Source of the DNA: a virus
Lineage: Duplodnaviria; Heunggongvirae; Uroviricota; Caudoviricetes
Direction: 5' to 3' (one strand)
DNA: 4,083 nucleotides
IMG/VR virus record: IMGVR_UViG_2606217102_000012
Each line of letters begins with the position of its first letter. The stretch's first letter is position 1. Made by a program: the position numbers and the translations under genes. The notes under the pieces are model-generated. The model worked only from the letters and a program-made list of their open reading frames with translations. It searched no databases and was not told the origin of the DNA. Positions 1-4,083 of the stretch are shown piece after piece.

Positions 1-99
1 GGACAATTCCCATCACGGCGTAAACTCGGCGGTCGTTCCGTTGGCTGGTCTTTATCCGAAGTTCTGGCATGGAAGGACAGCCGCGAGGCAGTTCACTAA
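1..99 (+). CDS. alpA: AlpA/Vis-family phage regulatory protein (excisionase-like HTH), C-terminal fragment; 5' end lies outside the window
   Basis: Frame 1 reads GQFPSRRKLGGRSVGWSLSEVLAWKDSREAVH then stop (TAA 97-99). The FPxxRxLGxxSVGWxxxExxxW pattern matches the conserved C-terminus of AlpA-family proteins as recalled from memory (E. coli CP4-57 AlpA ...FPKKRMLGVKSVGWIEAEIDEWL...). Not verified by search. Confidence 0.7.
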   Translation, partial: GQFPSRRKLGGRSVGWSLSEVLAWKDSREAVH

Positions 100-240
100 T
101 CAGGCTGGCGGCGCACCGCCGCCACCCATCCACTAACACAGAGATCTAACCATGAATACTGGATATACGCCCGAACAGGGGCGGGGCTTCGTTCGTCCTG
201 GTGAAACTAAAAAGCCATGTTATCGGGTATTTTCAGGCAT

Positions 241-271
241 AAAAAAAGCGGCCCCGATAAGGAACCGCCTT
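241..271 (-). terminator. second, weaker hairpin plus T-run (possible back-up or bidirectional terminator between alpA and the minus-strand cassette)
   Basis: Imperfect stem GCGG(c)CC (248-254) / GG(a)CCGC (262-268) with a 7-nt loop. On the minus strand it is followed by a run of 7 T (plus-strand A-run 241-247); on the plus strand only by CTTTCT. Stem is short and interrupted. Confidence 0.3.
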
Positions 272-360
272 TCTGAACAATTAACCTGCTGCGAAAAAAA
301 TGGATCAGTGCAGGGGAATTATATCAACCGTGTGGTGAAGCGCCACTATTGCCGGATAAC

Positions 361-393
361 AAGCAAAACAAAGGCGACCGCAAAAGGGTCGCC
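361..393 (-). terminator. Rho-independent terminator candidate for the minus-strand RHH cassette
   Basis: Perfect 7-bp GC-rich inverted repeat GGCGACC (373-379) / GGTCGCC (387-393) with a 7-nt loop. On the minus strand the hairpin is followed immediately by TTTGTTTTGCTT (revcomp of 361-372). It lies 67 nt past the stop of the 460..633 gene. Confidence 0.55.
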
Positions 394-459
394 AGTGGGA
401 ACAAGGGAAAACAAAAGCATCACCAACAATGCCACATTTGCGGCTGGTGGGCAATGCAA

Positions 460-633
460 TCAGTCTGGTTCAGTTCGTTGCCATACCTGCAATGAGCGCT
501 TTTCCCTGTACTCTTTAAGGAATTGCTCAAGGGCAAAAGCACATGGCGCGAATCTTTCTGATTCATGCTCTATCTTTCTGCGCCGTCTTTTCCGTGTCGG
601 TGATAATGTTTTGGTCAATTCTTTATCGGTCAT
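460..633 (-). CDS. small highly basic hypothetical protein (57 aa; 62 aa if the upstream ATG at 648 is used), second gene of the RHH cassette
   Basis: Minus-strand ORF in tandem with the RHH gene (42-57 nt gap). The ATG at 633..631 has a weak AGGG SD-like sequence 7 nt upstream; stop TGA at 462..460. Product MTDKELTKTLSPTRKRRRRKIEHESERFAPCAFALEQFLKEYREKRSLQVWQRTEPD, with an R/K-rich stretch (TRKRRRRK). Followed 67 nt downstream by a hairpin plus T-tract. No family recognised. Confidence 0.45.
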   Translation of the reverse strand: MTDKELTKTLSPTRKRRRRKIEHESERFAPCAFALEQFLKEYREKRSLQVWQRTEPD

Positions 634-690
634 TGTGTTGCCCTGCATAGCAATGCGCCGTAGTTACTCACACCACGGCGCTGGTGATGG

Positions 691-870
691 TTACTCCTGC
701 TCTTTGGCCTTGCGACGCTGGCGGCGTTTGATCTCGCCTTTTGCGGCAGTAACTAAAAAACCAGCGGTACTTTCGCCAGGTTCTTTAAGTTGCTCAATAT
801 CATCCATTACTTCATGTGGGATTCTGACAGTTGTCATTTGTGATTTTGCGTTCTTTGCACCAGTTGCCAT
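691..870 (-). CDS. Arc/MetJ-type ribbon-helix-helix DNA-binding protein (59 aa), candidate element repressor or antitoxin-like regulator
   Basis: Minus-strand ATG at 870..868 preceded by AGGAGA (revcomp of 876-881) at good spacing; stop TAA at 693..691. Product MATGAKNAKSQMTTVRIPHEVMDDIEQLKEPGESTAGFLVTAAKGEIKRRQRRKAKEQE. The segment VRIPHEVMDDIEQL...GESTAGFLVTAAKGEI follows the Arc-repressor RHH pattern (beta-strand R-x-P-x-E-hydrophobic, then two helices). The six-frame track extends this ORF to 1038, but that N-terminal extension has no RBS and overlaps the promoter region. Confidence 0.65.
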   Translation of the reverse strand: MATGAKNAKSQMTTVRIPHEVMDDIEQLKEPGESTAGFLVTAAKGEIKRRQRRKAKEQE

Positions 871-891
871 TTCTGGATCTCCTAAAAATTG

Positions 892-984
892 GTGTATGTC
901 AGTATACGCAAAAAAAATGATAAAAAAAGGCTTGAAGTGTATTTCACCAGTGAGTAAATTAAAAAGCAAAGGTGAAATACACCT
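892..984. promoter_or_regulatory. divergent promoter/operator region between the minus-strand RHH gene and the plus-strand small-gene/rep operon
   Basis: Perfect 12-bp inverted repeat GTGTATTTCACC (937-948) / GGTGAAATACAC (971-982) separated by a 22-bp AT-rich spacer, plus another GTGTAT at 892-897. A-tracts at 909-929. Candidate sigma70-like elements: plus-strand TTGAAG (932-937), 17 bp, TAAATT (955-960); minus-strand -10-like TATACT (revcomp of 901-906). Promoter hexamers are weak matches and unverified. Confidence 0.4.
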
Positions 985-1063
985 AAAAGAGCAACGCCCC
1001 GCAGTGCTCGCAACACATGCAGGGCGTCTAACCACCAACGATAACGAGAGTATCGAGGTAGCT

Positions 1064-1270
1064 ATGAGAAATTATACCAGACACCCGCAAGGGCGGGACT
1101 CGTACAACCTGAATAAATACATCTGGCGTTTTATCGCCCTGAGCACGGCACAACCGCGCGTGATTACCATTGAGGCCACCAGCGAACAGGAAGCGCGTCA
1201 GCAATCTCCTGATGGCTGCGTGATGGTATTCGCTGCCCGTATTCGCCAGGGGGAAACCTATGCACAATAA
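1064..1270 (+). CDS. small hypothetical protein (68 aa), tentatively Icd-like (host cell division inhibitor family); first gene of the plus-strand operon
   Basis: ATG 1064 preceded by GAGG (1055-1058) with 5-nt spacing; stop TAA 1268-1270. Product MRNYTRHPQGRDSYNLNKYIWRFIALSTAQPRVITIEATSEQEARQQSPDGCVMVFAARIRQGETYAQ. The ...EAxSEQEAR...FAAR... C-terminal pattern resembles what I recall of Icd-like small proteins in P4-like/satellite islands; family assignment is from memory only. These are the last 68 codons of the otherwise spurious 152..1270 ORF. Confidence 0.5.
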   Translation: MRNYTRHPQGRDSYNLNKYIWRFIALSTAQPRVITIEATSEQEARQQSPDGCVMVFAARIRQGETYAQ

Positions 1271-1721: not shown

Positions 1722-2009
1722 ATGAAAAATAAAAATTCTGGCTTTACTGCCAGCGGCCCCGCTCGGCCTGAAATCCGCCCCGGCGATATTTTCCGGGATA
1801 ACTATGGCGGCACGGTAACGATAAAAGGCGTGGCAGAACGGCGCATCACTTACCGCCGTGATGGCTACGAATATGACTGCGTGATGCCTGTTTATCAGTT
1901 CCGGCGTGATTTCACGCTGGTGGGCCATCGTAAAGCCGTAAATCAGAAACGTGCAGCAAGTCATATCCGCAAAATTCGTGAAATGCTGGTCGCAGGGGGT
2001 AAAAAATGA
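1722..2009 (+). CDS. hypothetical basic protein (95 aa), translationally coupled to the downstream helicase gene
   Basis: ATG 1722 begins 6 nt after the upstream stop; its stop TGA (2007-2009) overlaps the ATG of the rep gene (2006-2008) in ATGA. Product MKNKNSGFTASGPARPEIRPGDIFRDNYGGTVTIKGVAERRITYRRDGYEYDCVMPVYQFRRDFTLVGHRKAVNQKRAASHIRKIREMLVAGGKK. No family recognised. Confidence 0.55.
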   Translation: MKNKNSGFTASGPARPEIRPGDIFRDNYGGTVTIKGVAERRITYRRDGYEYDCVMPVYQFRRDFTLVGHRKAVNQKRAASHIRKIREMLVAGGKK

Positions 2010-3412
2010 AACTGGCACCGAACGTAAAACTGTTACCGAAAGATAAACACACTGAGGCGGTTATTTTTGCGGGTGATAATGCTCACTCCTTTGCAGAACA
2101 TTACATGATTGCACAGGCCAAAAAAGCAGGCGATCCCATCCCTCCGGTTTACCTGGGCCGTTATCAGTTAAGCGAACTGGACAACCTGCAGATTGTTGAT
2201 GAGGGGCGATACAGGGTAACGGTGATACGCGCCGGAAATATTGACGAAGCGCAGCTGTTAACCATAGCGACAAAACTGGCGATCGCCGGAGTCCAGGAAG
2301 CGCGGCTGCTTTCTGAAAACTTCGAATTACTGGAGAAATGGACCGACCAGCTTCCACGGCTACGGGAGACATGGGAGAGAGGGGAAAGCCTGATCATGAA
2401 CGGAGGAAAACAAAAAATCACGCTACCGATTTCATGGGGTTCTGAGGGATTCGACGCGCAGCAAAGCTACGTAATTAAGGGGCTTATTCCGGCTGAATCA
2501 TTATGCAGCACCTACGGGGCCAGCGGTTCTTATAAATCGTTCCTGGCTATTTCCTGGTCGTGCCATGTTGCCACAGGTATGGCATGGGGAGGCCGCAGGG
2601 TAAGTAAGGGCGCGGTTATCTATATCGCTGGCGAAGGCAGTATGGGCGTAAAACGCCGCGTTAAGGCGTGGGAGATAACCCACGACAAGGTGGTTACGGA
2701 TTTGTGCATCGTTAACGCGCCTGTCTTCCCTGCATCGCCTGACTATGTGGAGCAGGTTATCAGGACCGCCGGATTAGTGCAGGACAGAACGGGCGAAAGG
2801 GTGCGGATGATTGTCATTGACACGCTGGCCCGTTGCTTTGGTGGTCATGATGAAAATGACTCCCGCGACATGGGGGCGTTTATCCAGGGGTGTGACGCGA
2901 TAAAGCAGGCCACGGGGGCCACGGTTCTGGTTGTGCATCATTCCGGCAAGGATGAGACGAAAGGGGCGCGGGGTTCCAGTGCATTCCGTGCGGCGCTTGA
3001 TGCTGAGTTCCGAATCAGTCGGGAACATTCAGAGGCTACGGCGCTGGTTGCAGCATGTACGAAGATGAAGGACGCGGAGGAGCCAAAAGAAAGCGCCTAC
3101 GACCTTAAGAGCGTGGAGGTATTTACGGATCCTGAGGGTGAAGAAATCGTGTCCATGGTGGTGATTGACGTTCCCCGCGCCCCTGCTGAACTGGAGCGCA
3201 TAGAGGAGGCCGGGAACAAGACGGAAAATCACACGGCTTTATGGGGTTGTATCCGGTCACGTATACAGCATGGTGATAAATGCACGATCCCGCTGCTACG
3301 TGATGACATGAAAAAGCTGGGATATGACACAAAACACCTTAAACGATGGTTAGCCAAACTGGAAAAAGACGGCGTGATTTGCGTCGATGGGGATGATGTT
3401 CACCCACTGTAA
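2006..3412 (+). CDS. RepA-like RecA-fold (AAA_25-type) ATPase / replicative helicase-initiator of the element (468 aa)
   Basis: Long ORF with SD AGGGGG (1994-1999) 6 nt before the ATG. P-loop-like motif YGASGSYKSFLAI; Walker B / helicase motif RMIVIDTLARCF followed by HDENDSRDM; motif TVLVVHHSGKDETKGARGSSAFRAALDAEFRI typical of RepA/DnaB-like RecA-fold helicases. N-terminal ~150 aa and C-terminal ~90 aa regions (...DDMKKLGYDTKHLKRWLAKLEKDGVI..., possibly winged-helix) are unassigned. Iteron array begins at its stop codon. Confidence 0.85.
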   Translation: MKLAPNVKLLPKDKHTEAVIFAGDNAHSFAEHYMIAQAKKAGDPIPPVYLGRYQLSELDNLQIVDEGRYRVTVIRAGNIDEAQLLTIATKLAIAGVQEARLLSENFELLEKWTDQLPRLRETWERGESLIMNGGKQKITLPISWGSEGFDAQQSYVIKGLIPAESLCSTYGASGSYKSFLAISWSCHVATGMAWGGRRVSKGAVIYIAGEGSMGVKRRVKAWEITHDKVVTDLCIVNAPVFPASPDYVEQVIRTAGLVQDRTGERVRMIVIDTLARCFGGHDENDSRDMGAFIQGCDAIKQATGATVLVVHHSGKDETKGARGSSAFRAALDAEFRISREHSEATALVAACTKMKDAEEPKESAYDLKSVEVFTDPEGEEIVSMVVIDVPRAPAELERIEEAGNKTENHTALWGCIRSRIQHGDKCTIPLLRDDMKKLGYDTKHLKRWLAKLEKDGVICVDGDDVHPL

Positions 3413-3612
3413 AAAGTGGGCGTTAAAAGTGGGAATAGTGGGTAATTTAACTGGAATTTAACAAAATCGCCCACTTTCCCACGTGTATACATCCCAAAAA
3501 GTGGGCACTAAAAAAATTCTTATGAAACAGTACGATATAAAACCACAAAATCCCAGGTGGGACGAAGTGGGAAACCATGAAAAGTGGGTAGAAAAAGTGG
3601 GCGCAGGTGGGC
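3403..3612. repeat. iteron array, candidate origin of replication (ori) of the element
   Basis: Direct copies of (A)AGTGGG ending at 3420, 3433, 3442, 3505, 3571, 3588 and 3601, plus AGGTGGG variants ending at 3561 and 3611. Inverted copies CCCACT at 3403-3408 and 3470-3475, and CCCAC at 3478-3482. Two clusters (3403-3505 and 3555-3612) flank an AT-rich ~45-bp segment (3506-3550). AATTTAAC occurs twice (3444-3451, 3455-3462). Placement directly 3' of the helicase gene matches the rep-ori layout of SaPI/PICI-type elements. Confidence 0.7.
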
Positions 3613-3614
3613 GC

Positions 3615-3866
3615 ATGACCAGAAAAACCAGAGATAAGACAACACCAAAATATCGCGCATTAGACATGACAGAGCACGCCTTAAAGGTGGCAATCAGAAC
3701 GATAGACCGCCACGCCGGAGAAGGATACGCGAAAGCACATCCCGAACTGATAAGCGCATTCATGATCACGGCGGCGGCAAATTTTGCCACACTGACAGAA
3801 CGGGAGATTGCCGAAGCGGAACAGGTGACAACCATCAACGTTAAAACCGGAGAGCAGACAGCATGA
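3615..3866 (+). CDS. hypothetical protein (83 aa); start uncertain
   Basis: ATG 3615 preceded by AGGTGG (3605-3610, itself an iteron variant) with 4-nt spacing; stop TGA 3864-3866 overlaps the next ATG (3863) in ATGA. Product MTRKTRDKTTPKYRALDMTEHALKVAIRTIDRHAGEGYAKAHPELISAFMITAAANFATLTEREIAEAEQVTTINVKTGEQTA. The track's start at 3483 is a GTG and would make the iterons coding, which is judged unlikely. Confidence 0.45.
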   Translation: MTRKTRDKTTPKYRALDMTEHALKVAIRTIDRHAGEGYAKAHPELISAFMITAAANFATLTEREIAEAEQVTTINVKTGEQTA

Positions 3867-4083
3867 CAGCACAGATAGCGGCTTACGGGCGGCTGGTGGC
3901 TGACCCGCAGCTAAAGACCACCAGCAAAGGGACACAAATGGCGATGGCGAGTATGGCGGTTCCCCTGCCATGCAGCCAGGCAGATGACGGAACGGCGACG
4001 ATGTGGTTATCTGTCCTGGCGTTTGGCAGACAGGCCGACGCACTGGCAAAACACCACAAAGGCGAACTGGTGAGCGTGGCGGG
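3863..4083 (+). CDS. SSB-like OB-fold single-stranded DNA-binding protein, N-terminal part (3' end outside window)
   Basis: ATG 3863 with GGAGAG (3849-3854) upstream; open to the window end. Product MTAQIAAYGRLVADPQLKTTSKGTQMAMASMAVPLPCSQADDGTATMWLSVLAFGRQADALAKHHKGELVSVAG. It aligns by eye with the SSB N-terminus (E. coli SSB [29 protein letters not shown] ... [30 protein letters not shown]): G-x-L-x-x-DP-x-h-x-x-T-x-x-G, a W-containing strand, F-G-x-x-A-x-x-h-x-x-h-x-KG-x-x-V-x-h-x-G. Confidence 0.6.
   Translation, partial: MTAQIAAYGRLVADPQLKTTSKGTQMAMASMAVPLPCSQADDGTATMWLSVLAFGRQADALAKHHKGELVSVA

Follow-up and report, generated by a model that had tools for sequence, protein, structure and literature searches.

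The window (the whole stretch of DNA analysed here, 4,083 nucleotides) carries a replication region that is followed, at its 3' end, by the beginning of a gene for a protein (SSB) that binds single-stranded DNA. The 3' end of alpA, rep, ori and ssb fit the layout of phage-inducible chromosomal islands (PICIs) and capsid-forming PICIs (cf-PICIs), in which int, alpA, rep and a 3' iteron ori form a co-oriented string ahead of packaging or capsid genes, and tail and lysis genes are missing. The following features were recognised:

1–99 (+): 3' end of an AlpA-family regulator gene, a PICI-type marker
1722–2009 (+): DUF4222 small protein (PF13973), overlapping the start of rep in the same co-oriented gene string
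2006–3412 (+): RepA-family, hexameric-helicase-type replication protein, with an AAA_25 core at residues 146–317
3413–3611 (no strand assigned): putative replication origin, in which AAAGTGGG-type iterons form two sets, one on either side of an AT-rich stretch (approximately 3506–3553)
3615–3866 (+): 83-codon open reading frame (orf83), phrog_1231
3849–3854 (+): Shine-Dalgarno-like GGAGAG, 8 nt 5' of the ssb ATG, found by direct reading of the sequence
3863–4083 (+): 5' part of ssb, codons 1–73 plus 2 bases

Positions 1–724 of the window are 99% identical to positions 6132–6855 of a related locus (L011), in which an AlpA gene (PF05930) occupies positions 6042–6230. Small ORFs, including an Icd-like one, lie 5' of ssb on the same strand. 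A 372-codon ORF at 152–1270 (+) is probably spurious, because it spans a region which is annotated in related records as a minus-strand YlcI/YnfO-like gene (approximately 691–870) and a plus-strand Icd-like gene (1064–1270).

The product of rep has the RefSeq name 'helicase RepA family protein'. Its core matched Pfam family PF13481 (E 7e-43) and the RepA protein of RSF1010 (1g8y, E 2e-4), and its PHROG matches were confined to the helicase parts of primase-helicases. Only this central AAA_25 core could be assigned to a family; residues 1–145 and approximately 390–468 (the C-terminal ~80 residues) are without assignment. Neither a primase nor a polymerase domain was detected in the window using Pfam and PHROG and, since RepA has no detectable primase domain, priming presumably depends on the host. 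The first-pass annotation had described the region as a largely self-contained replication module. A RepA-type helicase/initiator, an origin and an SSB are indeed present, but with no primase or polymerase detected the module is only partly self-contained.

Exact copies of AAAGTGGG occur six times in the origin region, compared with 0.34 expected, and none of 200 shuffled sequences reached six. Variants and inverted copies of the same repeat are also found there, and GC falls to 0.35 at 3450–3549. Such a layout, with iterons immediately 3' of rep, is that published for the origins of Gram-negative PICIs (PMC6092414). Comparison with other loci revealed that the iteron sequence co-varies with the type of Rep at the same position 3' of rep, and that the downstream ssb is homologous throughout:

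RepA (AAA_25) type, window 3413–3611: AAAGTGGG, six copies
DUF927 Rep, EDL933 and another O157:H7 strain, L032 10172–10541 and L013 10381–10752: TGCGGGTTA, 11 copies
DUF927 Rep, E. albertii, L014 9753–10000: GGGACAAG, five copies

This co-variation, with ssb remaining constant, supports the assignment of the origin and suggests that ssb is an accessory which is independent of the Rep type. The three combinations (RepA and two DUF927 Reps) also provide a tidy example of a rep-ori cassette swap inside one satellite backbone.

The ATG at 3863–3865 opens a frame of 73 codons plus 2 bases which is free of stops to the end of the window. It overlaps the stop codon of orf83 (ATGA, 3863–3866), and this stop/start overlap suggests translational coupling of orf83 and ssb. 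No promoter-like sites were found between rep and ssb, nor any terminator-like sites on the coding strand there, and an Rfam scan of the window gave no match at E up to 0.1. The orf83 product had no match in Pfam, NCBIfam, PDB or PADLOC. In E. coli, orf83 accompanies ssb whether the preceding Rep gene is of the RepA or of the DUF927 type. We also considered orf83 as an obligate partner of ssb; this was rejected because the ssb copies of E. albertii, Leclercia, Buttiauxella and other genera lack orf83 as a neighbour.

Family, fold and C-terminal tail of the SSB

The 73-residue translation of the ssb fragment, MTAQIAAYGRLVADPQLKTTSKGTQMAMASMAVPLPCSQADDGTATMWLSVLAFGRQADALAKHHKGELVSVA, represents the N-terminal three quarters of an OB domain, and the remainder of the gene lies outside the window. 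This fragment matched the SSB family PF00436 with 34 bits (gathering cut-off 26, E 3e-8, profile positions 4–74 of 104 in Pfam) and the PHROG SSB family phrog_44 with an E value of 4e-21. These two matches show that the frame is real and not open by chance.

None of the contigs retrieved matches the window over its full length, because the window is a mosaic, in which RepA is as in the satellites found at the yejM site and orf83 and the 5' part of ssb are as in cf-PICIs; both the ssb bases and the first 724 bases of the window have their best matches in cf-PICI versions. The full-length protein was therefore read from loci in which these ssb bases are identical; the window does not extend to the 3' half of its own copy. 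All 221 ssb bases of the window are unchanged in four loci (L005, L006, L010 and L011), and 2–7 differences are present in eight others. The loci with identical bases encode a protein of 141 amino acids which ends in ...QHDDPYGDNIPF, with the tip DDPYGDNIPF, and a close variant of 140 amino acids ends in ...EPYGDNIPF. The 141-residue form is RefSeq WP_000126639.1, named "single-stranded DNA-binding protein", and the AST240 gene encoding it matches the ssb of L005 with 100% identity over all 426 bases.

An IPF end is encoded in all 12 loci examined, whose 5' parts are identical or almost identical to that of the window, and all full-length copies whose 5' part is at least 97% identical end in D-x-IPF. 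Multiple comparison of 20 cluster representatives (75–96% identity) showed that D136, P139 and F140 are invariant and that I138 is at least 90% conserved, with a variable linker preceding them. In most of the more distant representatives, the C-terminus is DD-x-[IL]PF. The acidic C-terminal tail is thus present in the full-length form of the gene, including what, judged from these sequences, is the tip for docking of host partners; the first-pass annotation had left this point to the full gene, which runs off the window. Past position 4083, a further ~210 bases are expected to encode ...GNMQVSQWTGQNG...DDPYGDNIPF followed by a stop codon.

Profile searches with the full-length protein gave 55.3 bits for PF00436 (cut-off 26), and the two full-length variants reached 57.1 and 62.7 bits for TIGR00621 (cut-off 53.95). 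All PDB sequence matches below E 0.003 (27 of the 28 listed) were SSBs, and a catalase appeared only at E 0.005. An AlphaFold model was built on protein P0008 (96% identity with the protein of the window type), using an alignment of 62 sequences. Its mean pLDDT was 85.6, with values of 93–98 over residues 1–100 and 56–64 over residues 101–140. The model has strands at 3–11, 16–19, 25–36, 44–54 and 69–82 and a helix at 55–62, forming a five-stranded OB barrel with the helix between strands 3 and 4, which can be superposed on solved SSBs. The part encoded in the window covers strands 1–3, the helix and the start of strand 4, and includes the conserved Trp48 and Phe54. Low pLDDT suggests that region 101–140 is probably disordered. 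The full protein of about 141 amino acids would then consist of an OB domain (residues 1 to ~100), a short, variable and disordered linker (~101–130) and a conserved acidic tip ending in IPF.

Foldseek searches of the model against PDB returned bacterial SSBs for all of the top 50 matches (target TM 0.65–0.82, E 2e-9 to 2e-7), and the matches among viral models were likewise SSBs. By every sequence and fold criterion tested, the protein is a member of the bacterial SSB family. The earlier reading of positions 3863–4083 as an SSB-like OB-fold protein was therefore borne out by Pfam, TIGR00621, PDB sequence, AlphaFold and Foldseek, with a predicted structure that is an OB fold and not a different one.

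The equivalents of W54, F60 and W88 of E. coli SSB are W48, F54 and W81, the last of which lies outside the window; all of them are invariant in the clade. Three of the four aromatic residues that stack on ssDNA in E. coli SSB are thus kept, and the equivalent of the fourth, W40, is Asp. Bacterial SSBs are homotetramers, or dimers of chains with two OB domains, which bind ssDNA with high affinity. The equivalent of E. coli H55 is Leu, and the oligomer interface may therefore differ from that of E. coli SSB. Considering that the residues equivalent to W40 and H55 are not conserved and that the linker is about half as long, the binding mode and the oligomeric state may both differ from those of E. 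coli SSB.

Satellite elements carrying the gene

Parts of the window matched 1916 of 5426 complete E. coli genomes, and the RefSeq label under the match was 'single-stranded DNA-binding protein'. DNA similarity to ssb itself was detectable in 1369 of the 5426 genomes, at 60% to 100% identity, which means that this ssb lineage is represented in roughly one in four complete E. coli genomes. At the protein level, 759 clusters (90% identity) were found at E up to 1e-5, and the source name was SSB for all of the 120 that were listed. Hundreds of such 90%-identity clusters are intact and some contain >1000 members. With P0008 as the query against a 50%-representative library, 342 representatives were found below E 1e-10.

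No close homologue was detected in 50,697 phage records, in which the best matches were SSBs of Gram-positive siphophages with ~30% identity. This distribution indicates a satellite/island lineage rather than a helper-phage gene. Values of dN/dS over the OB domain, calculated for copies from E. coli, E. albertii, Leclercia, Buttiauxella, Rosenbergiella and Pantoea, range from 0.05 to 0.24; thus, ssb is under purifying selection.

A few 'plasmid' records also have copies, at 50–69% identity. Homologues of the SSB N-terminal part with 51% identity are encoded by the small Enterobacter 'plasmids' OW969629.1 and OW969669.1 (both 10.6 kb) and NZ_CP066105.1 and NZ_CP047733.1 (both 15.5 kb), and the 10.6- and 15.5-kb ones could be episomal satellites. 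One record, NZ_CP141089.1, is listed among PLSDB plasmids yet has a size of 4.9 Mb.

In addition to the genes seen in the window, related loci contain an integrase and either an HK97-type set running from capsid to TerL or a set of the lambda gpE/gpD/Nu1 type. No tail genes were found between the flanking host genes in the related loci examined. The rep-ori-orf83-ssb module is common to two satellite architectures, the cf-PICIs and a satellite of ~9.5 kb. The former carry HK97-type capsid, protease, portal, connector, HNH, TerS and TerL genes. The latter is located at the tRNA-Pro/yejM site of E. coli 504239 (L001 10003–19291) and shares the replication module of the window. Its genes include a lambda gpE-like major capsid gene, a gpD-like decoration gene, a second AlpA-like gene and a Nu1-like TerS. 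Portal, protease and TerL genes were neither annotated in this satellite nor detected by Pfam, and its packaging set differs from that of the cf-PICIs. Directly 3' of ssb, some cf-PICIs have a gene for a ProQ/FinO-domain protein, and others one for a PerC-family regulator (L005 10711–11253; L013 11424–11696; L032 11211–11483), and the same ssb-ProQ or ssb-PerC neighbourhood recurs in other genera.

The cf-PICI at roxA/phoQ of EDL933 encodes an intact SSB of 136 amino acids at the same position (L032 10790–11200). On the basis of element size, strain and gene numbering, this element is probably the published prototype EcCIEDL933. Helper-phage-dependent induction and transfer have been published for EcCIEDL933, which is another variant than that of the window (bioRxiv 10.1101/2022.09.08.507074). 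A second O157:H7 cf-PICI, located at tqsA in strain SS TX 754-1 (L013 11001–11411), has an ssb pseudogene in which the codon of the conserved Trp81 is changed to a stop. This copy differs from the intact EDL933 protein at 6 of 136 positions and is 68% identical to the window-type protein. Both copies follow a DUF927-type Rep gene with iterons different from those of the window. The pseudogene gives no argument for dispensability of ssb in the cf-PICI prototype, as it sits in the tqsA element and the roxA/phoQ ssb of EDL933 is intact. In other Enterobacterales, ssb is again found after a DUF927-type Rep gene, in integrase-bearing islands. The position of ssb after rep and ori is thus conserved across Rep types and genera.

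These observations agree with the first-pass annotation in that the gene is element-encoded, belonging to PICI/cf-PICI satellites which have an integrase and AlpA, and in that it lies beside rep and downstream of the origin, namely 3' of a RepA-type gene, an iteron origin and the 83-codon ORF. Taken together, we consider it highly probable (roughly 85%) that the ORF represents the 5' part of a genuine SSB gene of the bacterial type, carried by an E. coli phage-inducible chromosomal island.

Proposed role and alternative explanations

Considering that ssb is located 3' of rep, ori and orf83 on the same strand and that no promoter- or terminator-like site intervenes, we propose that it would be made together with Rep after induction by a helper phage. 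As the RepA-type helicase unwinds the iteron origin and then moves the fork along, single strands would become exposed, and the protein would coat them. In E. coli SSB the tip binds chi, DnaG, PriA, ExoI and others; analogously, the host-like tip would pass the coated strands on to partners in the host replisome (Pol III chi, DnaG primase, PriA and exonucleases). In addition, the satellite SSB may supplement a host SSB pool that would be limiting during simultaneous amplification of helper and satellite. The analysis establishes family membership, fold, tail retention, gene position and purifying selection; ssDNA binding, oligomeric state, partner recruitment and a contribution to satellite replication are inferences. 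The host-type tail also argues for dependence on the host replisome, which further trims the proposed self-containment of the module.

It is likely that the satellite SSB is an accessory and not essential. The pri-rep-ori cassette of the related PICI EcCICFT073 was tested alone for plasmid maintenance, in a construct which apparently lacks ssb (PMC6092414), and the natural pseudogene copy in the tqsA element indicates that the gene can be lost.

Some of the same features could also be expected if the protein acted mainly through its tip. Carried on a short linker, a host-type tip might sequester SSB-interacting proteins (ExoI, PriA, RecQ and chi), or the protein might displace host SSB, with support of replication being secondary; a helper phage relying on host SSB would then be at a disadvantage, or satellite DNA would be shielded. 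The strict conservation of the tip next to a variable linker would fit such a takeover, and so would a satellite-specific lineage whose best relatives in the phage records reach only ~30% identity. Phage SSB-like proteins with the same tip have been reported to perturb host ssDNA metabolism and to trigger defence systems (bioRxiv 10.64898/2026.04.29.721553), and the test of a rep-ori cassette on its own for plasmid maintenance (PMC6092414) could be taken in the same direction. However, ssb sits in the replication string right after rep and ori and not among interference or packaging genes; no PADLOC match was obtained with SSB, nor with orf83, RepA, DUF4222 or the small ORFs; there is no experimental hint of interference; and an ordinary SSB role explains every feature. 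We therefore regard takeover or competition as unlikely. If it did occur, capture of host SSB partners, or their exclusion from helper DNA, during co-replication would contribute to helper interference, or SSB-sensing defence systems might be inadvertently set off or evaded.

The nearest relatives outside the clade, SSBs of Staphylococcus and Streptococcus phages and S. aureus SsbA/SsbB (28–30% identity), raise the question of whether the protein acts in recombination or establishment. Like the SSBs in the recombination modules of Gram-positive siphophages, it might shield single-stranded intermediates, or take part in their processing, when the element is excised, packaged, or circularised and integrated after transfer. 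This is very improbable, given that no single-strand-annealing recombinase (RecT, Erf or Sak type) was annotated or Pfam-matched beside ssb in any locus examined, the neighbours being rep and ori upstream and ProQ/FinO, PerC or capsid genes downstream. The pseudogene copy in an O157:H7 cf-PICI would be expected if ssb were a captured, decaying hitch-hiker with no current function in the element. Such an explanation is hardly credible in view of purifying selection across the six genera/species compared, the invariance of both aromatics and tip, and the large number of intact clusters. All three alternatives are ranked low because of the gene position, the selection signal and the fact that neither a neighbouring recombinase gene nor a PADLOC match was found, and an ordinary SSB serving satellite replication is the preferred reading.

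Comparison with known systems

E. coli SSB (PF00436/TIGR00621; PDB 1eyg, 1eqq) shares with the satellite protein the OB fold, the W54/F60/W88 equivalents, a C-terminal region predicted to be disordered and an acidic IPF tip. The two proteins are only 25% identical over the OB domain (E 6e-9), in accordance with the earlier description of the satellite protein as divergent from host SSB. The satellite SSB is also shorter (141 versus 178 amino acids), and its loop between strands 2 and 3 is five residues shorter than that of E. coli SSB. Its linker comprises ~30–35 residues, is not Gly/Gln/Pro-rich in this variant and contains a weakly predicted helix at 116–127. The tip is DDPYGDNIPF, compared with MDFDDDIPF in E. 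coli SSB.

The closest proteins outside the clade, by both sequence and structure, are the SSBs of temperate siphophages of Gram-positive hosts, such as Staphylococcus phages (StB20-like and PVL) and Streptococcus phage 5093, and S. aureus SsbA/SsbB (PDB 5xgt, 5yyu). At 28–30% identity and a target TM of ~0.8, they are similarly short (130–150 amino acids). The siphophages in question infect another host phylum, and in Gram-positive siphophages ssb usually accompanies a recombinase module, whereas the satellite ssb follows rep and ori. As to the upstream gene, RSF1010 has the RepA/AAA_25 helicase core in common with the Rep of the window. RSF1010 additionally encodes a primase (RepB') and an initiator (RepC) of its own; in the window, in contrast, no primase was detected, and the iterons are located 3' of the helicase gene, an arrangement shared with PICIs. 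The literature on A-family polymerase-SSB primases was considered and set aside as unrelated to this locus.

That this gene encodes an SSB and belongs to the replication module of PICIs is already known from the RefSeq/PGAP name and the satellite literature. PICI SSB has been grouped with primase and ori as a replication module or category of Gram-negative PICIs (PMC10111431); ssb is unmentioned in the cf-PICI paper and the satellite census. Since this is an ordinary, known gene, the present analysis has little discovery value, and what is gained is a verified call, a tail shown to be present and a more modest view of how self-contained the module is. Compared with the ssb genes of Gram-negative PICIs and cf-PICIs, which are represented by the named proteins WP_000126639.1 (AST240 cf-PICI, gcd/hpt), WP_000126631.1 (tRNA-Pro/yejM satellite) and WP_000126692.1 (EDL933 cf-PICI, roxA/phoQ), there is no substantive difference: it is the same gene, in the same place after rep, ori and the 83-codon ORF.
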